DNA of 53,578 nt from a virus. Its lineage: Duplodnaviria; Caudoviricetes. Positions 2,403 through 13,297 of this stretch are shown here, one piece after another (position 1 is the stretch's first letter; each line of letters starts with the position of its first letter). Location of the stretch: positions 1-53,578 of IMG/VR virus record IMGVR_UViG_3300040816_000922. One strand, 5' to 3'. The position numbers and the translations under genes were made by a program. The notes under the pieces are model-generated. The model saw nothing but the letters and a program-made list of their open reading frames with translations, had not been told where the DNA came from and did no database searches.

Positions 2403-2563
2403 GACGGAATCCCTTATGCCAAAACGGTATCAAAACGTTCTGGCTGCACGAATCAGTTTCGTTTAGGTTTAATACATTGCAGAACAGAAGTGGCGTGAAG
2501 CGAATGGATCAACTAGCCTTATCAGCGCATGGCGTTAAGTCCTCTCGAGGAGAGGATAAAACT

Positions 2564-3394
2564 ATGCAGAAAACGTTGGGAAGGGCTGTTGATCGTTGGC
2601 TGAAGATCAGGGAGCGCAAGTGTAAGAACCCGAAGTGGGTTGGCTATGACCGAACCTACACCGCGTTCTTCCTTGAGAAGCTGGGGGCAGACACCCTCCT
2701 CTCTGACATTCGGCGGTCAGACATAGCGGAGATCCGGGATGAAATGCTCGAGGAGCGTTGCCCGGCAACAGTGAACCGCTACATGACCACGCTGCGCTCG
2801 ATCCTAAATATGGCTCGAGATGATTGGGAATGGATTGATCGCGTTCCCAAGATCGAACGGCTGGAGGAGAAGGCAAGGCAGAACTTCATTACCAGGGAGC
2901 AGGCTCGAACTCTGATCGAGCTCTTGCCCGAGCACCTGGCAGCGATGGTTCGCTTTGTTCTCGCCACCGGCTTACGCAGCGCTAACGTTCGCAACCTCCG
3001 CTGGGATCAGGTGGACATCCGGCAGAAGTATCTGGAGATCCCTGGGGAGGAAATGAAAAACGGGAGAGTGTTCTCGGCACCGTTGAACTCGACGGCTATC
3101 GAGGTGCTCCTCGGACAGTACGGGAAACATCAGGAGTACGTTTTCCCGTACAAGGGAAAGCCGGTATCTCAATGCAACACGAGGGCTTTCCGAGAAGCTT
3201 GCCGTAGGGCGGGGATTCCTGGAACCAGGTTCCATGACCTTCGGCATAGCTGGGCTAGTTGGCACATTCAAGCCGGAACCCATACCGCCAAACTCAGAGA
3301 GCTCGGCGGTTGGAGCGACGACAAGATGGTGCAACGCTATGCCCACCTGAACCGACGCCATCTAGAAGAAGATGTGGAGGTCACAGCTTTTTGA
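2564..3394 (+). CDS. int: Tyrosine recombinase / phage integrase
   Basis: Catalytic R (TGLR), K (MKN), HDLRH, GGW, RYAH; GAGGA RBS before ATG 2564; attP immediately downstream. Confidence 0.95.
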   Translation: MQKTLGRAVDRWLKIRERKCKNPKWVGYDRTYTAFFLEKLGADTLLSDIRRSDIAEIRDEMLEERCPATVNRYMTTLRSILNMARDDWEWIDRVPKIERLEEKARQNFITREQARTLIELLPEHLAAMVRFVLATGLRSANVRNLRWDQVDIRQKYLEIPGEEMKNGRVFSAPLNSTAIEVLLGQYGKHQEYVFPYKGKPVSQCNTRAFREACRRAGIPGTRFHDLRHSWASWHIQAGTHTAKLRELGGWSDDKMVQRYAHLNRRHLEEDVEVTAF

Positions 3395-4446: not shown

Positions 4447-4824
4447 ATGGATGTTCGAGAAATGCCTTACGACAAGTTTGTCGGAGCCCTGCTGGCTAGC
4501 CCTGAGTCGGTGAAGCTGAACGTCGAGGTGATGAACCGCGACGAGGTGGATCTCCTGCACGCGGCGGTCGGTATCGCTACGGAGGCAGGCGAGCTCCTCG
4601 ATGCGATGAAGAAGTCGGCGTTCTACGGTCACAAGCTGGACTGGGAAAACGTCCTGGAAGAGCTCGGCGACATATTGTTCTATCTGACGGCGGCGAAGAA
4701 CGTGGTCTCGAAGCGAATGCCCGGGAGGGACATTCAGGCTGAGAACCGCATCAAGCTGTCAAAGCGGTACCCGTCTGGCTCCTTCAGCTCTGCTGATGCC
4801 AGGGCGCGGGCGGACAAGGCTTAG
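4447..4824 (+). CDS. MazG-like nucleoside triphosphate pyrophosphohydrolase
   Basis: TEAGELLD..KK, EELGDILFY and N..KL.KRYP motifs. Confidence 0.9.
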   Translation: MDVREMPYDKFVGALLASPESVKLNVEVMNRDEVDLLHAAVGIATEAGELLDAMKKSAFYGHKLDWENVLEELGDILFYLTAAKNVVSKRMPGRDIQAENRIKLSKRYPSGSFSSADARARADKA

Positions 4825-5118: not shown

Positions 5119-5164
5119 GGACCCCCGGGGGACCCCTCCCTCTCCCGCCCCTGGGGGTCCGCTT
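5119..5164. terminator. Hairpin between convergent operons
   Basis: GGACCCCCGGGGG (5119-5131) pairs with CCCCTGGGGGTCC (5148-5160). Confidence 0.55.
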
Positions 5165-8100
5165 TAATCTTCAGCGGTTTCCTTGGTGAAGCGAGCGTTG
5201 AAGCGGCGATACACCTTGTACTCCCGCTCAACCATCTGCTCCTCGTATTCCTCGAAGCGCTCCTCGCTCATGTACTTCTCGGCGCTGCGCTTAGCTTTCC
5301 GGATCGAGCGAAGCTGCTTCTCCGCAGATTTCAAAGCCCCGGCAAGGCGAAGAACGCTGGCGTTCTCTCTTGAGAACTCGAGCCGCTCTTTCCCTCTGAG
5401 GGAATCCTTCTGATCTACGACCCGCAGAATCTCGTTGCGGTTGGTGTAGAAGGAATCCAGGTGCTCGTACTTTGAGGGCTGACCGTAGACTGCTCTCAGC
5501 AAGGGATACTGCCGAGCCTCAAGCTTCTCAACATCGCCAGTAAATGCGGCGCCGCCGAAGTTGATGAGGCGCATCCCAAACCGTCCGGCGCCCCCAGCAT
5601 AGAAGCCAACAATGTGATCGATGGCGTCCGGCGCAATATCAACCATGCCGGGGATATGTTTCTCCCCGCCGCTGATCTCGTTTAAGAACTGAGCAATCGC
5701 AATCGATGCTTCGCTGGTGTTCGGTCGGTGCAGCAAACTGTTCGGCAAATGCTCCTGATTCGGATACCGCCGGGGCAGGATGCTTGAGCCCCAGTGGTTC
5801 TCGTTGATCGCAAGCTGAACCCAGGGCTGAGCAATAGTAGGAGATGCGGACTTGATCGCCGTTCGAGTGATCCCGTTGGGTGACGCGGATACAGACAGTG
5901 GCGAGAAGCTGCCTAGGAACGCTCCGAAAACATTATTCACCGCATCGAGAGGCGTCTTGCGCGGGCTGAATGCCGCGTCCGTCAGCTCCGTCCCAATGAC
6001 ATGGAGCACAGAAAAGCCGTAAGGGAGGGGGATCTTAAAATAATCCTCCCCGTCCAGCGGATTCATGAAGATCATGTTCCGATCTTTCTCGTGCTGAGGA
6101 ATCATGTCGTAGTGGAGATTCCCCTCATCGTCCTCTCCGCTGATCATGCGATTCATCACAGCTAGACCGACCGACACGCCTACGCTCGCCATTGCAAGGC
6201 GCTGCGCAGCCGTCATGGTGCCTTGCTTAGTCTTTCCGGTAAGGCTTCGGATGACGTTCATGTTCCCCTGCACGGCGGCGTTGAAGAACATATAGAACGA
6301 ATTGATCCAGGCGGTAGATTCACCTCGACGGTTAAAGTTGACCGTTAGGTTCTTCGCCAAGTCTGCTGCACGCTCGGCGGACACTCCCTGTTGCCGGGCG
6401 GCGACATAGGCTGATAGCCGGGCAGCGTTCTCGAAAGCGCCGTTAAAGTCCTGGATAAAGTCCATGACCTTTCTGGCGCCGCGCTTGGCGTCAATCATGC
6501 TCGACTTGCCGTTAATCCTAGTAAGCGAGTCGATGCGGCTTGCTTCCTTCTCGAGATCCAGCAGGTTTGCCCAGCCGGTCATGCCGCCGAACTCCCTGAA
6601 CTCTTGGGCGTATCGATCAAACAGGACCTGCTCTGGGGTGCTGCCGCCCTTCCCTCGCGCGCTCCGCCAGAACGCTCGACCGCTAGCGATCCAGTTTTTC
6701 GGGATCTGACCGGCAATCTTTTTGCCCTCAACCCTGCCATCCGAGCGAGTCTGCTCCGCAAGGGCGTTGTACATAGCGGTGAACAGGTCGCGAGGAGCGT
6801 TCACAAGGAAGAAGGCTGGGTTGTATGTCGTCGATAGCTGGGAAAGGGCGCGGGTAAATCCGCCCAGGTACTGCACAACCAGCTTGTTCGCTTCTTCGCT
6901 ATTCGTGGCACCAGCGTTTTGCATGGCGCGATTGACCAGCGGATCCTTGAGCTCGATGAAGTAGGTGCCGCCGTCAATCTTAGCCATCATGAAGCGCTTA
7001 TCGCCGTTATCTTGGCGACGAGCAGTCCGCATATTGATGCGCTGGCGGACGATGCCGCCTCCGGGACCAGGCATCTCCTCGAGGGGACCATTGCCTTCTG
7101 CGTATACCTTCCAGCTCGTGGAGTCCGGGTACTCGAGGGTGAGGTCTAGCATAGAGACCGCCACCTCGTTCTTGCGGATCCGCATCGCCTTTTCTTGAGC
7201 AAGGCGAAGGCTGTTCAAGACGGGGTTAGCAGCCTTGGTTCTCCGACCTAGCGCAGCCATCGTTTCGCTGCCGCCAATAGAGAAGCCTGCGCCGGTCCTG
7301 GCGCCGCCCACGACGGGGGTCTTCATCTCTTCGGCGAAGCCTTGGAGGGGGACGTAGAACTTGAAAGAAGATTCCCACTTAACCTGGGTTTCCTCGTCAA
7401 TCATCCCTGCCTCATTGAGCCGGTCGCGGGCGTCCTGAAGGATGCCGTACATAACCTGGCTAGCCCTGCGGAGCTCCTCCGTCTTGCCCTCCTGGTCGAA
7501 GCGCAGAAGGATCTGATCCGCCTCTTGGTTGGTCATGCCCGATCCGCCATCATCCATCGGCTCAGGGGGCTGGCTTCTTGGGTTCCTGCCTTCCGCCACG
7601 GCTTGCTCGTGGCGCGCAATCGCCTCCCGACGCTTTTCCGCAATGAACTGATTACGCTCAGGGGCGTGCATCGCGTACATATAGAGCCCGAGCTCCTCGA
7701 GGCTAAGCCCGGCGTCCTTGAGGATCGGGACAGCGCGCTCGAACATCTGCTCGATGCGTCGGAAGTCTTCCCCAACCTTCCCGTAGTACAGGGTTTCCTT
7801 TAGGGAAACATCGACAGCCTCGTCAAGCTGGTCTAAACCATTGACCTCTTTGACCTTCTCGAGCTGAAGGCGGACGCGGAGCATCTTGTCCTGGATCTTG
7901 CGAAGGAATGCCTCGGTCCTGGTTTCATCATCCAGGTTGTAGAGGTTCGACGGTTCGCGATCAGAAAGCATTCCGCCTTCTGCCCGGGCGCTCTCGTAGT
8001 TAAAGTTGAGCCCGCTTTGAACAGGGTCGGGAGCTTCGTTTAATTCTGAGCTCTCTCGTGGGATAGCCTGTCCCTGATCTCCGCCCAGCGCGGATTCGGC

Positions 8101-11100
8101 TTCCCGTCCCTGATAAAAGAGTTGATCTTGTCGATTAGGGCTTTGGTCGTTCCGCTGAGCGCCGCCGTCTTGATCTCGCCCGACGGAACCGGGTGCCCGA
8201 ACTTCGCTTCGTACAAAGCCATCGCCCGCTGGAGTGGATTCTCTGCGGCGATTCGAGTCCAGTTGAACGCCATTTCTTCCTCCGTTGAACCGCTGAGAAG
8301 CGGTCTCTGCCGCATCCTGGATGACGGCAAAGGTCTGCGGCATGTTGCGGCGCAGCGCCTCGCGGTCAGTGTAATAGAGAGCATAGGACTGAGCAAAAAG
8401 CTCCCGGGCAATAAGCACCTGATCCTCTTGCGAGATCTGCCCTCCGCCGTCCTTGAGCATCCCCTCAATCAGGTTAAGGGGGTAGGTGTAATACTCAGAG
8501 AGCTCGCCGCCCTGCCACTGCTCGGCAGCCTCATTGAACAAGGGCTTGCCATCGACAATGAGCTCCCCGTTCTGCTGCTGCGCCTGGAACCCAAAGGAGC
8601 TTTGGACCATGCGGGCGGCAAGTCCCCTGCCCTGCGCCATGTTGAAGTCAACGGCGTGACCCACCTCGTGGGCAAGGGTGGACCGGAGAACCCGCCGGAG
8701 GCTTTGCTTGTACTCGCTGCGATCCCCTGAGGTGTCGCTTGCCAGGTCGGCAAACAGCTGAGAGTTAATCCCGACAACGCCAGCCTGGTAGTCAAAATAG
8801 CCAACCGTGCCGTCCGTGGTGTCGAAGGAAACGATGCCGTTCTGAGCCAGGTTGCCGATCAGATCGGTCGTGATACCGATCTCGGATAGATCCTCCATTG
8901 CTGCCGCGAGCTCGTTGCGGGCAAAGGAAGGGATCTGGTTTCCGCGATAGCCATTGGAGACAACATCCTCCGCCTGGCTGTATACAACCGAATCAGGGGT
9001 TCCTACCGAGGCTGCTCGGATGAATCGGACCTTGGGGATAGAGGTAATTCGCCCGGCATATCGGAAGCTTCCGGGGCTCTGCTCGAAGTCGATGCGCTTG
9101 AAGAGCGACGGGCTATCCGGTCCTTCTTCAGGAACTCGATTGCCTCCCTCGGGAGCAGCATCGGCGGCTCGTCCGGGTGCTTCAGGTTCGCGTTGTGCGT
9201 TGCTACTGCCAGCATCCGGTAGAACATCCGGTCGGTTAGCTGGCTGCGCGAAGAGGTCTTGGGGTTGTCCTGCATTATTCAGCCTCTCGAAGTTTTCAAT
9301 CGCAGAATCAACGATCTGATCAGTTGACGGCGCCTCGAGCTCCTCTCCAAACAGGCTTCCCGACTGCGAGGATTGATTCGCGGTTTCAAGGAATCGTCCC
9401 ATATCGGAGAGCAAAGAGCTCATCTTTTTGGCGGACCGCTTGTTTGCATCCAGCTGCTTGGCGAGAGTCGCGCTTACGGGGTCAATATCCCCAAACATCC
9501 CGGTCTGTGCAGCCAGATCTTCGACCGACCTATTCTCTCGGCGAGATTGCTGCAAGAGCTCAACCGCTCCTACAACCTTGGACACCAGATCACTGCTTAG
9601 GGTAGACCCCTCGGCTTCGAGCGCCCGAGCCCGAGCGAATACCGGAGCCGCTGTCTGCAATGCGTTCAGGACATTTTTGACATCCGGGTTAGTGTCCTCG
9701 GTGGCGACCGTAACCAGGCGAGCGTCACCATACGCCCTGGCGAAAACTGCATTCCGGATTCGGTTGACTAGAGCAGGCGTTGGGCGCCCGTCGCTTTGCA
9801 GTAAGCCTGATGCTTGGGTGGTCCCGAGCTCTGCCGAAAACTTTGATAGGAACCTGGCGTTGGATGCCGTATCAATCTCGCCGTTTTCGCCTGGAGCAAA
9901 GGAGGTCATCATCTCGTCAGAGATCATGTTTGCGTCTGCGAGCGCCTGCTCCGAAGGGGACATAGCGGCAATGGCGGACACGTTGGCGTCGCGGGTAAAC
10001 GCCTTTCGAGCGTCTACGGATAGGTCTCGAGTCCGGCGGCGGACGAGTACCGGGTTCGGAACAGAGTTGATCTGCTCCTCCGAAACTCCGCGCTGCTTAG
10101 CCTGCTCTCGCACCCAGGCAGCATATTCCCCCGCCTTGCCCCGTTGATACGCGAGCTGGAGGGCAGCCGCTCGACCATTGCCGCTCTCAACCACAAGATC
10201 GGGACCAACAACCGGGGCGCCGTCCTCTGCCCGCCCGGTGTCTCCAAGCTGCTCTGGAACCAGGGTGTTAGCAATCTCCTGGATCTGGACAAGGCTTGCC
10301 TGACGCGAGCGGTCCCGAGGCTGTAGTTCTGCCGGGTAAGCAGGGTTCACGCTGCCGTCGAATCTATTACTTGAGATCAGCTGGCTTGCATCGACGACCG
10401 CCCACTCCGCCTCAAACTCTTGAGCCTTGGAAGTCCTCACCCGAGCAGGGAGCCCGGTAAGGATTGGCGCGCCAGCGGTAGAAGCAGGCGCCTGGCTTTC
10501 CGCACCAGTAAGCCTGATGCCCCCGGTAAAATCAGGATCGATCAGACCCTGGTCAGCCAGGTCCTTTAAGACAGCCTGAGTCGGGTTAAAGCCGGTCCGA
10601 AGCCCGTTCTGAACATCGCTAACGGTAGGGTTTTCCGTGCTCCTAATGATCTCGAGAGCTTGCTGCGCCTGGGAGGCTACCGGCGCCTGGGCAATCGGAG
10701 CGTCTTGGTCAGCCTGTTCGACGGTATCTCTTGCAGAAAGCTGGATAGATGGCTGAGCTGGCGGATCTGGCAGTCCTTTCGGAATAAGATCTTTTTGCCC
10801 GGGAGCTGCGATATTGAGCTCTTGCAGCTTGCGAAGGCGCCGAAGGTTCTCCTGCTGCCTGGGGGTTAGGCTCCCCTCGTTACGGTCAGGCGTTCCCTCA
10901 AGGGGCGCGGTGCCCTGAGTCTCCGGGGCTGTATCGCTAGGGGGATTTTGAGGCGGCGCGGTAAGCCTTCTTGCTCCTGCGGTTACCCCAAGCTGCGCGC
11001 CACCACCCACAATCGTCGCGATTGAGGTAATCAGCTGGCGCTCTGCTTGAATTTCCCCAGCCCTTCCGTAATCCCCTTCATCGATTGCTTGCTCGAGCTC

Positions 11101-11934
11101 AGGGTCTAAGCCATTGGAGTAGGCATTGAGCGATTGGAAGAAAGTGGCGAGCTGCTCGCCAGGGATCTCGGTAAGCGCAAAGTCCCTCAGGGTTTTGGTA
11201 ATCTCCTGGCGCCCTTCTCCGCCCTTCCCGCCTAACGCGCGAACCAGGACCATGTTAGGGAGAACCTCGGTAGCTGCCTCAATTACCGCGTCAACCCCGG
11301 CATAGTTTGCCGCCTGGCTATGGTCTAGCCCCTCTGCTCGAGCCGTTGCGTAGCTATCCCCCGCCACAAGCGCGGACGCGCCCGTGGTGGCAACGGTGGG
11401 GCTGCGGGTAGCAAGAGCTGCAACCATCGTCGGCAGGTTTTGGGCAAAGGACACTACCCCGGAACGCACCCCTTCCTGCATTACGGAAAGGTTTTCAGGT
11501 CGGACGCTTGCGACTTCCCGGTCTATTTCCTGTGCCCGGGCAATCTGAGACTGCGCATCTTCCCTAAGCTGAGCCCCTAGCGGCGTCCGACTAATGATTT
11601 CCCTAACAGCATCCTGCGCAAGGTTGTACGCAGCAGCAGGACCCATCGTGTATCTTCCGGGCAGGCTAAGGGGGTCAGGCTCAGGTGCTGTCCCGAGATC
11701 GCTAGCCAGCCCTGCCCCAATCCCCCTGTAACTTTTTTCGGTTGCAAGGGCTATTTCTGACCCTAGCCCAGAGGCAATCCCGGAAAAGAACCCCTCGCTC
11801 TCAGGACGAACGGGCTCCGAGCCCAGACCGGACTCAACCTCATTCATGATGTCTTCGAGAGAGCGAGGAGTTTTTTGCTCCGGCGCCTTCTCCACTTCAT
11901 CCATGATAGAGCCGAGGCTGGGTCTCGTTGCCAT
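5164..11934 (-). CDS. Large polyvalent internal-virion/ejection protein (FtsK-gamma-like wHTH, DdrB-like ParB, HExxH zincin, LPD38), ~2256 aa
   Basis: ParB motifs QPRDR..GAPVV..VESGNGR; LAHEVGH; C-terminal YDMIPQHEKDRN..YFKIPLPYG; last gene of the virion block; ATG 11934 follows the upstream stop. Confidence 0.88.
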   Translation of the reverse strand: MATRPSLGSIMDEVEKAPEQKTPRSLEDIMNEVESGLGSEPVRPESEGFFSGIASGLGSEIALATEKSYRGIGAGLASDLGTAPEPDPLSLPGRYTMGPAAAYNLAQDAVREIISRTPLGAQLREDAQSQIARAQEIDREVASVRPENLSVMQEGVRSGVVSFAQNLPTMVAALATRSPTVATTGASALVAGDSYATARAEGLDHSQAANYAGVDAVIEAATEVLPNMVLVRALGGKGGEGRQEITKTLRDFALTEIPGEQLATFFQSLNAYSNGLDPELEQAIDEGDYGRAGEIQAERQLITSIATIVGGGAQLGVTAGARRLTAPPQNPPSDTAPETQGTAPLEGTPDRNEGSLTPRQQENLRRLRKLQELNIAAPGQKDLIPKGLPDPPAQPSIQLSARDTVEQADQDAPIAQAPVASQAQQALEIIRSTENPTVSDVQNGLRTGFNPTQAVLKDLADQGLIDPDFTGGIRLTGAESQAPASTAGAPILTGLPARVRTSKAQEFEAEWAVVDASQLISSNRFDGSVNPAYPAELQPRDRSRQASLVQIQEIANTLVPEQLGDTGRAEDGAPVVGPDLVVESGNGRAAALQLAYQRGKAGEYAAWVREQAKQRGVSEEQINSVPNPVLVRRRTRDLSVDARKAFTRDANVSAIAAMSPSEQALADANMISDEMMTSFAPGENGEIDTASNARFLSKFSAELGTTQASGLLQSDGRPTPALVNRIRNAVFARAYGDARLVTVATEDTNPDVKNVLNALQTAAPVFARARALEAEGSTLSSDLVSKVVGAVELLQQSRRENRSVEDLAAQTGMFGDIDPVSATLAKQLDANKRSAKKMSSLLSDMGRFLETANQSSQSGSLFGEELEAPSTDQIVDSAIENFERLNNAGQPQDLFAQPANRPDVLPDAGSSNAQREPEAPGRAADAAPEGGNRVPEEGPDSPSLFKRIDFEQSPGSFRYAGRITSIPKVRFIRAASVGTPDSVVYSQAEDVVSNGYRGNQIPSFARNELAAAMEDLSEIGITTDLIGNLAQNGIVSFDTTDGTVGYFDYQAGVVGINSQLFADLASDTSGDRSEYKQSLRRVLRSTLAHEVGHAVDFNMAQGRGLAARMVQSSFGFQAQQQNGELIVDGKPLFNEAAEQWQGGELSEYYTYPLNLIEGMLKDGGGQISQEDQVLIARELFAQSYALYYTDREALRRNMPQTFAVIQDAAETASQRFNGGRNGVQLDSNRRRESTPAGDGFVRSEVRAPGSVGRDQDGGAQRNDQSPNRQDQLFYQGREAESALGGDQGQAIPRESSELNEAPDPVQSGLNFNYESARAEGGMLSDREPSNLYNLDDETRTEAFLRKIQDKMLRVRLQLEKVKEVNGLDQLDEAVDVSLKETLYYGKVGEDFRRIEQMFERAVPILKDAGLSLEELGLYMYAMHAPERNQFIAEKRREAIARHEQAVAEGRNPRSQPPEPMDDGGSGMTNQEADQILLRFDQEGKTEELRRASQVMYGILQDARDRLNEAGMIDEETQVKWESSFKFYVPLQGFAEEMKTPVVGGARTGAGFSIGGSETMAALGRRTKAANPVLNSLRLAQEKAMRIRKNEVAVSMLDLTLEYPDSTSWKVYAEGNGPLEEMPGPGGGIVRQRINMRTARRQDNGDKRFMMAKIDGGTYFIELKDPLVNRAMQNAGATNSEEANKLVVQYLGGFTRALSQLSTTYNPAFFLVNAPRDLFTAMYNALAEQTRSDGRVEGKKIAGQIPKNWIASGRAFWRSARGKGGSTPEQVLFDRYAQEFREFGGMTGWANLLDLEKEASRIDSLTRINGKSSMIDAKRGARKVMDFIQDFNGAFENAARLSAYVAARQQGVSAERAADLAKNLTVNFNRRGESTAWINSFYMFFNAAVQGNMNVIRSLTGKTKQGTMTAAQRLAMASVGVSVGLAVMNRMISGEDDEGNLHYDMIPQHEKDRNMIFMNPLDGEDYFKIPLPYGFSVLHVIGTELTDAAFSPRKTPLDAVNNVFGAFLGSFSPLSVSASPNGITRTAIKSASPTIAQPWVQLAINENHWGSSILPRRYPNQEHLPNSLLHRPNTSEASIAIAQFLNEISGGEKHIPGMVDIAPDAIDHIVGFYAGGAGRFGMRLINFGGAAFTGDVEKLEARQYPLLRAVYGQPSKYEHLDSFYTNRNEILRVVDQKDSLRGKERLEFSRENASVLRLAGALKSAEKQLRSIRKAKRSAEKYMSEERFEEYEEQMVEREYKVYRRFNARFTKETAED
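8040..8273 (-). CDS. Nested 77-aa gene in the +1 frame of the polyvalent protein, after the zincin domain (candidate immunity/inhibitor)
   Basis: GGAGG-AAGAA-ATG RBS; globular-looking product, while the host frame is a polar linker with several CGA codons. Confidence 0.7.
   Translation of the reverse strand: MAFNWTRIAAENPLQRAMALYEAKFGHPVPSGEIKTAALSGTTKALIDKINSFIRDGKPNPRWAEIRDRLSHERAQN
9003..9275 (-). CDS. Nested 90-aa gene in the +1 frame, after the ParB region (candidate partner/immunity)
   Basis: GAGAGG-7nt-ATG; helical-looking first ~55 aa; host-frame codons here mostly end in A/T. Confidence 0.55.
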   Translation of the reverse strand: MQDNPKTSSRSQLTDRMFYRMLAVATHNANLKHPDEPPMLLPREAIEFLKKDRIARRSSSASTSSRAPEASDMPGELPLSPRSDSSEQPR

Positions 11935-11935
11935 A

Positions 11936-13297
11936 TTACTGATCGCCCCCTGCGCCCAAGACTTCTTGATAACGACCGTAGATCTCTTGAATTTGCGCAG
12001 GGTTGTAATTGCGAATCCGTTCGAGCTGCGCGTCAATCTGTTGAGGCGACTTCGTAAGGTACTCGCGCTGCGCCTCTTGCATGAGGAAAAAGCGCATTTC
12101 ATTAATACCTAGGTCTCGCTCTGCCCCTGCTGCCGAAGGCGCCGTGTCTCTCGGGAGGAGATTGCTCGGGACCACGCGCGAATACTCTTTGTCGAGTGCG
12201 TCATCAACGAAGTAACTGATGGGAAGCTCGGGACCAAGAAGGTCCGGGTCTTCGATCCCGTTGCGTCGAGTCATATAGGCTTTGTATGCCTCCTCTCCGC
12301 GCCTTTCCGCAGCAGAAAATCTATCCGGATCTGCCTTTCGGACCTGGTCGAGGAGGGCTCTCTTCATGGAGGGGTCCTCCTTCACCGCCGCTTGCACCAT
12401 GCTCAACCCGATAACAGGATTGATAATGTCTTCGAGGCGAATGTCGGCAGCTGGAGCGTTAGGGTCAGTGCTGCGTCCTACGGTAATCGGCGCCTCATAG
12501 GACCCGCCTTCTGCATCCACCTTGAGGTTAAGGCGCAGAACTGGAGCTCCGTCCTCTTCCTGCCCCACAACCTCATAGCTCACAACGTCAGCGTTGGTGA
12601 TCACGCCGTTGCGCCCGACCGCCCCTTGGATAGCCTTTAGGTTTGCGTCCATTCCAAGGTTCAGGGCATCAAGAAGCTCAGAGCTGTTCGCCTGCAAGGG
12701 TTTTTCCCCGCGAACAAAGCCCATAGCATTTTCGATGCGCCCCGCCGCTGCTTGGCTAAGCATAGCGGTGGGATGCAGTGCAGACCCTTCGGTAAGCTTT
12801 AGCCCCTGAAGCACCGATTCCGTCACCCCCTGCCCACTTGGATCCAGCATGGGAAGCCACTGAGTGAATCCTCTTCGTGCCGCATCAAGGCGTGCAGCAG
12901 TCTGGCTTTGCTCAAGGTCAAACTCGGTTTTGCTAGTGCTTGCTGCGGAAGAAGCCTCCTGCGCGCGGCTTGCCGCGATTCGCGCGGCTGACTCATCTCC
13001 AGCTCGAGCATCTTGCCTGAACGCGAGCGTGTTCTCGTAACCAGCTTGGCGCATATCGAATAAGGCTTTATCCCGAGCAGCGAGTGCGGCTTGCTCTGCG
13101 GCGGTGGCTTCTCGATCCGCCTGCTCGCGCATGTACTTCCGATACTCCTCATCCGCGCTAGCTTCTTGAACGGCTAGCTCGTAACGCTGCTTGAGATTTT
13201 CCGCATTTGCAGCGTCAGCCGCCTGGCGACGCTTGCGCTCTTCCATGTCGTTGACTAAGCCGTAGCCTGAGGTAAATCCTGCTGCAAAGCCGCCCAT
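11936..13297 (-). CDS. Internal virion/ejection protein (453 aa)
   Basis: MGGFAAGFTSGYGL N-terminus, coiled coil, position in ejectosome cluster. Confidence 0.75.
   Translation of the reverse strand: MGGFAAGFTSGYGLVNDMEERKRRQAADAANAENLKQRYELAVQEASADEEYRKYMREQADREATAAEQAALAARDKALFDMRQAGYENTLAFRQDARAGDESAARIAASRAQEASSAASTSKTEFDLEQSQTAARLDAARRGFTQWLPMLDPSGQGVTESVLQGLKLTEGSALHPTAMLSQAAAGRIENAMGFVRGEKPLQANSSELLDALNLGMDANLKAIQGAVGRNGVITNADVVSYEVVGQEEDGAPVLRLNLKVDAEGGSYEAPITVGRSTDPNAPAADIRLEDIINPVIGLSMVQAAVKEDPSMKRALLDQVRKADPDRFSAAERRGEEAYKAYMTRRNGIEDPDLLGPELPISYFVDDALDKEYSRVVPSNLLPRDTAPSAAGAERDLGINEMRFFLMQEAQREYLTKSPQQIDAQLERIRNYNPAQIQEIYGRYQEVLGAGGDQ

Follow-up and report, generated by a model that had tools for sequence, protein, structure and literature searches.

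We analyzed a giant gene on the minus strand of a Caudoviricetes virus record of 53,578 nucleotides (IMGVR_UViG_3300040816_000922; the whole stretch is hereafter called the window), together with two open reading frames (ORFs) that are nested within it in the +1 frame. Judged from its sequence, the giant ORF is a phage-type polyvalent protein, because its ddrB-ParB region, HExxH peptidase and LPD38 domain, along with its position in a block of virion genes, match the family described by Iyer et al. (2017). A first-pass annotation had proposed the same string of domains, and our searches confirmed all of its parts except the winged helix-turn-helix (wHTH) segment, for which only a weak match below the threshold was obtained. 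The two nested ORFs that it reported are also present: each is preceded by a Shine-Dalgarno (SD)-like motif, lies directly after a domain module (ORF 1 after the ParB region and ORF 2 after the zincin-like peptidase) and begins with an ATG straddling an AAT|G codon junction (Table 1). Its further claim that both are genes fared differently for the two: ORF 2 is a credible candidate for an embedded gene, at about even chances, whereas ORF 1 had no homologue and a substitution pattern equal to the null.

Table 1. Positions of the giant gene, its domains and the nested reading frames in the window (aa, amino acids; nt, nucleotides)
Feature	Position	Strand	Basis or comment
Giant polyvalent virion protein gene	5164..11934	minus	2256 aa from ATG at 11934; ORF open up to 12102
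Weak wHTH (FtsK_gamma-like), aa 480-524	10531..10665	minus	Pfam E 0.018, sub-threshold
ParB module, aa 547-936	9295..10464	minus	PHROG match
ddrB-ParB core (PF18763), aa 560-691	10030-10425	minus	Pfam E 4e-36
GAGG, 7 nt ahead of ORF 1 ATG	9283-9286	minus	SD-like
ORF 1, +1 frame, 90 codons, main aa 943-1033 (linker 1)	9003..9275	minus	Probable compositional by-product
Zincin-like metallopeptidase (MPTase), aa ~1056-1271	8290..8937	minus	HExxH and invariant residues, model
HExxH motif AHEVGH, aa 1144-1149	8656-8670	minus	Sequence
GGAGG, SD-like motif, 5 nt upstream of ATG at 8273	8279..8283	minus	Sequence
ORF 2, +1 frame, 77 codons and TAA, main aa 1277-1354 (linker 2)	8040..8273	minus	Candidate embedded gene
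EVRAPG main-frame motif, aa 1300-1305, linker 2	8188..8205	minus	Read by eye from sequences
Conserved C-terminal module, aa 1389-2307	5182..7938	minus	PHROG; common to Vibrio, Stx, Ruegeria and Ralstonia phages
LPD38 (PF18857), aa 1997-2201	5500-6114	minus	Pfam E 2e-40

Amino acid changes within ORF 2

From 17 close homologue protein sequences, we collected the distinct amino acid changes attributable to a single nucleotide and scored each for silence in the +1 frame. Over the whole gene, 45% of 847 such events were +1-silent. Within ORF 2 (aa 1277-1353), 11 of 13 distinct changes were +1-silent (Q1345P, AGG to CGG, being counted among the 11), and 10 fell at position 1 of the main-frame codon, which is the third position of the +1 codon. 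The probability of at least 11 silent changes out of 13 was 0.0046 when compared with the gene-wide share; it was 0.0006-0.0009 when the null came from region-specific mutation models adjusted so that the share over the gene was 0.43-0.44 (observed 0.45); over all models tried, it ranged from <0.0001 up to 0.006. When the whole gene was scanned in the five alternative frames, the top window was found in the +1 frame at aa 1290-1366 (13/14 silent, p = 2.9e-4), compared with p = 0.0026 for the best window in any other frame. The +1-silent share was 2/7 in aa 1155-1276, 11/13 within ORF 2 and 10/23 in aa 1354-1420, and ten silent events formed an unbroken run between 1290 and 1346, a distribution that fits the predicted borders of ORF 2.

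The main-frame changes accepted within ORF 2 included radical ones (R to G, G to R, Q to P, I to S and R to S), and the homologue P0002 differed in the main frame at 10 of the 77 ORF 2 codons though it is 98% identical overall; the main frame is therefore likely to be tolerant there. Among 5.8 billion proteins, the only relative of the ORF 2 product was P0007, a 77-aa protein that comes from a locus of the same type, begins at the same ATG on another contig and is 96% identical to it. The two differ by E11A, R67K and S71A only, and one of these three changes is silent in the main frame (the R67K codon was mapped by hand). In a single-sequence AlphaFold2 (AF2) model, the ORF 2 product folded into four helices, with a predicted local distance difference test (pLDDT) of 77.8 and a predicted template modeling score (pTM) of 0.63. 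We give purifying selection on the +1 frame of ORF 2 (p ~0.001-0.005) about an even chance, and we consider it about half probable that ORF 2 is a translated and selected embedded gene of unassigned function.

Several observations weigh against reading ORF 2 as a gene. The signal consists of 13 events only, all inferred from protein sequences, and main-frame silent changes, which would be the most diagnostic kind, are seen only through P0007. When ORF 2 is compared with the two other linkers (50/103 silent, pooled) rather than with the gene, the contrast is weaker (p ~0.02, an estimate). The changes V1301I, A1303T, S1306P and R1309G lie in main-frame stretches that are also conserved in distant homologues, and main-frame constraint may explain part of the ORF 2 bias; with V1301I, A1303T and S1306P left out, 8/10 changes are still +1-silent (p ~0.009). 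The distant homologue P0021 shares the main-frame motifs NGGRNG, VR(A/S)xGxVG, QDGGA and GREAxS, and P0027 and P0028 share (V/I)R(A/T/S)P, which suggests that the main frame of linker 2 has short functional motifs of its own, perhaps a processing site. The last of these, represented by EVRAPG in the window, occurs 20-40 residues past the peptidase in P0021, P0027 and P0028, and loosely in others, where it is followed by G/D/E-rich sequence, and it may be a site of polyprotein self-processing.

Further points on the same side concern the relative and the model. The contig of P0007 carries a giant gene that is apparently fragmented, and P0011, a 218-aa end piece, lies on a contig of the same size; because the giant gene seems fragmented on its contig, the P0007 call is not independent evidence for a gene. 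Besides P0007, the ORF 2 product had no homologue, and it had no family in Pfam, PHROG or NCBIfam. A fold search with its model returned no match (best expectation value, E, 1.5), and the five AF2 models, made without a control sequence, span pLDDT values of 55-78. Synonymous permutation within the ORF 2 region gave no signal (log-likelihood ratio, P = 0.12), and likewise none was obtained in ORF 1. For P0021 (40% identical), the upper bound on +1 conservation fell inside the spread of the control windows (z 0.7-2.0), with 42/68 +1 residues attainable vs 29/68 main-frame identities; the best-case ORF 2 alignment of this protein was above shuffles (z 7.8) because of main-frame similarity. Moreover, many different tests were run, and a single p of ~0.001-0.01 is to be discounted somewhat.

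Among the 46 +1-frame ATGs, that of ORF 2 had the most accessible start region (positions -15 to +5). However, real starts in this phage were no more open than background (0.46 vs 0.48), and this test is accordingly without power. An antisense ORF (8122..8730, plus strand) that shares third positions with the +1 frame was considered as a cause of the ORF 2 bias and rejected, because it covers only main aa ~1327 and below and is silent for 9/13 events vs 11 for the +1 frame, and because only 2/7 changes in aa 1155-1276 fall at main position 1, the sole position that it can read as silent, and the bias toward position 1 thus stops short of that part. A tblastn match of ORF 2 in a Rhizobium plasmid (E 0.04) was also set aside as a chance match, lying in frame within a 681-aa enzyme ORF.

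Linker composition and chance expectation of +1 ORFs

We compared the number and length of +1 ORFs in the giant gene with those in shuffled sequences. Whole-gene codon shuffles yielded a mean of 3.2 ATG-initiated +1 ORFs of at least 77 codons vs 2 observed, and the longest +1 ORF was 114 codons vs a shuffle mean of 139. SD-like matches of at least 4 nt were found at 10/46 +1-frame ATGs and at 19% of all gene positions; for matches of at least 5 nt, the figures were 2/46 and 5.9%, respectively. The existence of both nested ORFs is no more than chance would give. The frame of ORF 2 opens earlier than its SD-led start, at an ATG at 8384 without an SD motif, and the +1 frame is open across aa 1212-1354.

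A stop codon can arise in the +1 frame only where the second base of a main-frame codon is T (NTN), and such codons encode hydrophobic residues. G, D, E, Q, R, P and S abound in the linkers between domains, and NTN codons are scarce, making up 14-18% of codons in the nested regions vs 24% gene-wide. Under synonymous resampling, the +1 frame stayed open in 64% of trials for ORF 1 and in 30% for ORF 2. This scarcity of NTN codons keeps the +1 frame of the linkers open and explains why the ORFs lie precisely there.

The first-pass annotation had named homologous giant genes as the place where a conserved arrangement of +1 ORFs should be sought, and the counts there matched those of shuffles, with no excess. 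ATG-initiated +1 ORFs of at least 70 codons numbered 12 in Ruegeria phage 45A6, 2 and 1 in the two coding sequences of RPZH6 and 4 in VT2-Sakai, compared with synonymous-shuffle means of 11.9, 1.4, 1.9 and 2.9 in the same order. SD-like motifs preceded 5 of these 19 ORFs, many of which lie in NTN-poor stretches. Because the homologous genes carry no excess of +1 ORFs, nested genes are not a general habit of this protein family.

Frame plots of codon usage and of G+C content at third codon positions (GC3) favor the +1 frame in both nested linkers. We rejected them as evidence for genes, because +1 GC3 is equivalent to main-frame position 1 of G/A/D/E/P/Q/R codons and because a third linker without an ATG ORF behaves alike. 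In this linker 3 (10678-10866, aa 413-475), the +1 frame is open for 62 codons with no ATG ORF and no substitution bias; its main-frame GC3 is 0.52 vs 0.66 expected, and its +1 GC3 is high, as in both nested regions. The linkers of the giant gene seem to have low main-frame GC3 in general.

The ORF 1 product, whose C-terminal half is rich in Ser, Arg and Pro, had no relative among the 5.8 billion proteins. Neither the ORF 1 nor the ORF 2 product had a tblastn match in phage genomes (six frames) or a match to a Pfam, PHROG or NCBIfam family or a solved structure. Of 34 distinct single-nucleotide amino acid changes in ORF 1, 17 could be +1-silent, which equals the null given by the 45% gene-wide share. 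The homologues P0004-6 show main-frame differences at 27-30 of the 90 ORF 1 codons, and at least 15-16 of the 90 +1 residues are forced to differ; the ratio for ORF 1 in these homologues was 0.53-0.55, approximately one standard deviation (sd) below control windows (0.65-0.69, sd 0.10-0.12). P0021, which is without ParB, has no ORF 1 counterpart, and its best-case alignment was not above shuffles (z 0.29). ORF 1 is most likely a by-product of linker composition, and we regard it as very improbable that it is a gene.

The same explanation could be extended to ORF 2, such that neither nested ORF is translated and the bias in ORF 2 arises from sampling noise together with main-frame motif constraint. 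Gly-Gly and Glu-Arg codons would then make the SD-like strings, and NTN-poor linkers cannot gain +1 stops. In line with this, the ORFs are no more numerous and no longer than shuffles predict, the probabilities of an open frame are 0.64 and 0.30, homologous giant genes carry +1 ORFs at shuffle frequency (5/19 with SD-like motifs), homologues and families are wanting, permutation within the region is null, and all three linkers, including the one without an ATG ORF, combine low main-frame GC3 with high +1 GC3. However, this account does not readily predict that 11 of 13 changes in ORF 2 are +1-silent with matching borders and at the top of the five-frame scan; the radical changes accepted in the main frame speak against tight constraint on it, and ORF 2 has a strong SD motif at ideal spacing and a fairly confident helical model. 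We judge that ORF 2 is a by-product like ORF 1 with a likelihood moderately below one half.

Domains, relatives and setting of the giant gene

The giant ORF (5164..12102, minus strand) comprises 2312 codons. Its start is probably the ATG at 11934 (M57), because the homologue P0017 begins at the equivalent Met; the stop of the upstream gene is at 11936, just before this ATG. The FtsK_gamma match of the wHTH segment scored 15.2 bits vs the Pfam cut-off of 30.6, and the segment with its flanks (aa ~476-537) is missing as a clean block from the homologues P0004 and P0018, in which respect it appears to behave as a dispensable inserted module. The conserved C-terminal module is common to 340 phage records.

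In the peptidase, H1145, E1146, H1149, D1152, Y1207 and E1234 are invariant in sets of 14 and of 15 aligned relatives, some of which are only 21-27% identical. The gluzincin ligand pattern is present, with HExxH on the predicted helix 119-147 of the model and a downstream Glu (E1234). The AF2 model of aa 1011-1280 (pLDDT 64, pTM 0.71) places three strands (79-83, 91-94 and 99-103) ahead of the active-site HExxH helix, and its best Foldseek matches are M34 gluzincins, although these are weak (E 0.012-0.2, query template modeling score 0.32-0.41, at a model pLDDT of 64). The peptidase domain of the window had no Pfam peptidase match, and the relative P0027 gave a sub-threshold match to ATLF (24.6 bits vs a cut-off of 27.4). 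The 45 residues before the peptidase core (aa 1011-1055; 8938-9072) do not vary among close homologues and are conserved in part in P0021, yet they are modeled as disordered (pLDDT 23-28); they may be a docking or pro-peptide-like segment.

Full-length homologues measure 2190-2272 aa, and six of them keep a single giant ORF. Five close full-length relatives are 98, 79, 80, 75 and 68% identical overall, and further cluster members were used too; in Ralstonia and Stx phages, homologues carry the annotation DarB-like or LPD5 protein. For the middle region, only 10 relatives at E <=0.001 were found among 1.84 billion representatives, and blastn and tblastn searches against phages gave nothing useful. 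Peptidase and linker 2 together (aa ~1003-1360; ~8023-9096) form a block that is ~96% identical in relatives 68-80% identical overall, and the edges of this block vary between lineages, a clear recombination mosaic. Ordinary phage mosaicism explains this block as well as a captured-gene system would. No relative turned up when viral, metagenome and genome contigs were scanned, the queries being the window segment, P0021 and alignments A1 and A4, and a search of viral contigs for exact 27-mers was likewise empty.

Strain differences were taken from contigs of four sequencing runs (Logan) aligned to the window, with figures based on the 40 of 109 differing places that were listed. None of these 40 lies inside either nested ORF, and over ORF 2 the run contigs depart from the window by only 0-3 letters. 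In the ParB module (9480-9817), 18 of the 21 listed differences fall on position 3 of the main-frame codon. One minor contig from run X14, at depth 2.7 of 12.4, gains one base and loses another 5 nt away at 9232-9237, inside ORF 1, so that both frames are shifted for two codons; this pair of changes probably reflects a diverged strain or an alignment effect.

The giant protein may also occur in split form. One contig of run X14 (depth 9) has a single-base deletion at 8006 that would interrupt the giant ORF immediately past linker 2. P0016 (906 aa) is the C-terminal module called alone from M1407 (~7884 downward) on a near-identical contig of 53457 bp, and in Ralstonia phage RPZH6 the homologue of the giant gene consists of two overlapping coding sequences. 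Split and fused forms may coexist, or these may be assembly errors.

The giant gene is the last of a minus-strand block that also encodes the terminase, portal, tail fibers and an internal virion protein; the tail fiber genes, followed by those for the internal virion protein, portal and terminase, occupy 16110-38139 (minus). Adjoining the giant gene on the opposite strand are an integrase and a MazG-like pyrophosphatase (2477-3394 and 4447-4824, plus). The window is a temperate phage genome, and metagenome runs of estuarine and marine origin, belonging to 13 studies, contain the same stretch. By analogy with its family, the giant protein is presumably packaged and delivered with the DNA.

Explanations for ORF 2 and comparison with known systems

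The explanation that we favor, and to which we assign a likelihood only slightly below one half, is that ORF 1 is a by-product within a polyvalent protein and ORF 2 is a genuine overprinted gene with a helical product. In this model, one polypeptide carries the weak wHTH, the ddrB-ParB module, the zincin-like metallopeptidase and the LPD38-bearing C-terminal module, joined by linkers whose +1 frame is open by composition alone, ORF 1 arising as a consequence. ORF 2, with its 77 codons, would be overprinted on the linker that immediately follows the peptidase domain (linker 2), internal initiation at GGAGG-N5-ATG would yield the small helical protein, and the main frame of linker 2 would serve as a tolerant linker. 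That this protein acts on the adjacent peptidase is a guess. The four-helix product might check or chaperone the peptidase in the producer cell and be left out of packaging, so that processing would be released after packaging or injection, although we regard this version as unlikely.

The +1 frame of ORF 2 could also be reached by a ribosomal shift near GGAGG, which would give a truncated wHTH-ParB-peptidase protein with an alternative C-terminus of 77 residues. SD-like elements stimulate a +1 shift in prfB, no +1 stop occurs between aa 1212 and 1354, and split giant genes occur near there (the deletion at 8006 in run X14 and P0016 from M1407). However, GGA-GGA-AGA-AAT contains no slippery or stop-codon shift site, the changes S1269Y and R1251Q just upstream of the ATG are not +1-silent, which fits a start at 8273, and P0007 was called from the ATG. 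We consider such a shift very unlikely.

Least probable of all, and hardly to be credited, is the proposal of the first-pass annotation that both ORFs are captured immunity or inhibitor genes that neutralize the domain upstream of each (ParB and zincin) in the producer cell: both do lie directly after a domain module with SD-like motifs, and peptidase and linker 2 travel together as a near-invariant block in homologues differing by 20-32% overall, but ORF 1 shows no sign of selection (17/34), has 15-16/90 residues forced to change in P0004-6 and lacks a P0021 counterpart, neither product has free-standing relatives among the 5.8 billion proteins or in phage and plasmid DNA, the homologous genes have no excess of +1 ORFs, and the peptidase is an internal domain regarded in the polyvalent-protein literature as a processing protease rather than a C-terminal toxin. 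In polymorphic toxin-immunity cassettes, a small ORF likewise begins right after an enzymatic domain. Here, however, that domain is internal rather than C-terminal, the small ORF overlaps rather than follows, relatives in immunity families are lacking, and only one of the two ORFs bears any sign of selection. A captured-inhibitor system is thus unsupported.

The giant protein itself is a further phage-type member of the polyvalent proteins, a family already known, with which it shares the giant polypeptide combining DdrB-ParB, MPTase and LPD38 and the location in a virion gene block (Iyer, Burroughs, Anand, de Souza and Aravind 2017, PMC5512222). According to the main text of that study, DdrB-ParB and LPD38 are phage-only (phage-type) domains, and the zincin-like MPTase is the commonest polyvalent-protein domain, proposed to be a processing enzyme rather than a terminal toxin; the word 'overlapping' is absent from this main text, and embedded genes are thus not discussed there (PMC5512222). 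The present protein differs in the rarity of its combination with this MPTase subfamily (the 10 relatives noted above). Its peptidase resembles the M34 gluzincins, namely the catalytic domain of anthrax lethal factor and the Pro-Pro endopeptidase PPEP-1, in having HExxH with an invariant downstream Glu and Tyr, whereas in fold it is only weakly similar to them, and its model is of intermediate confidence (pLDDT 64).

Among the lambda spanins, Rz1 lies in the +1 frame of Rz. Like Rz1 and other overprinted viral genes (PMC5295617, PMC6139136, PMC8227390), ORF 2 is a small ORF lying wholly inside a larger gene on the same strand, in another frame and with a start signal of its own. However, Rz1 is a lipoprotein with a known partner, whereas the putative ORF 2 product has no signal sequence that we could see and no family.

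These results call for caution in the annotation of nested genes, since disordered linkers in giant genes rich in GC are expected to give rise to long SD-led +1 ORFs. Because homologous genes carry such ORFs at shuffle frequency, the combination of an ORF with an RBS-like (ribosome-binding-site-like) string is no evidence for a nested gene. We know of no embedded gene reported before in a polyvalent protein and, if translated, ORF 2 would to our knowledge be the first. In that case it would, moreover, be a specific candidate regulator of the processing that polyvalent proteins are proposed to undergo by their own metallopeptidase, and should the anti-protease reading prove true, the family would contain an embedded regulator that is invisible to standard gene callers.

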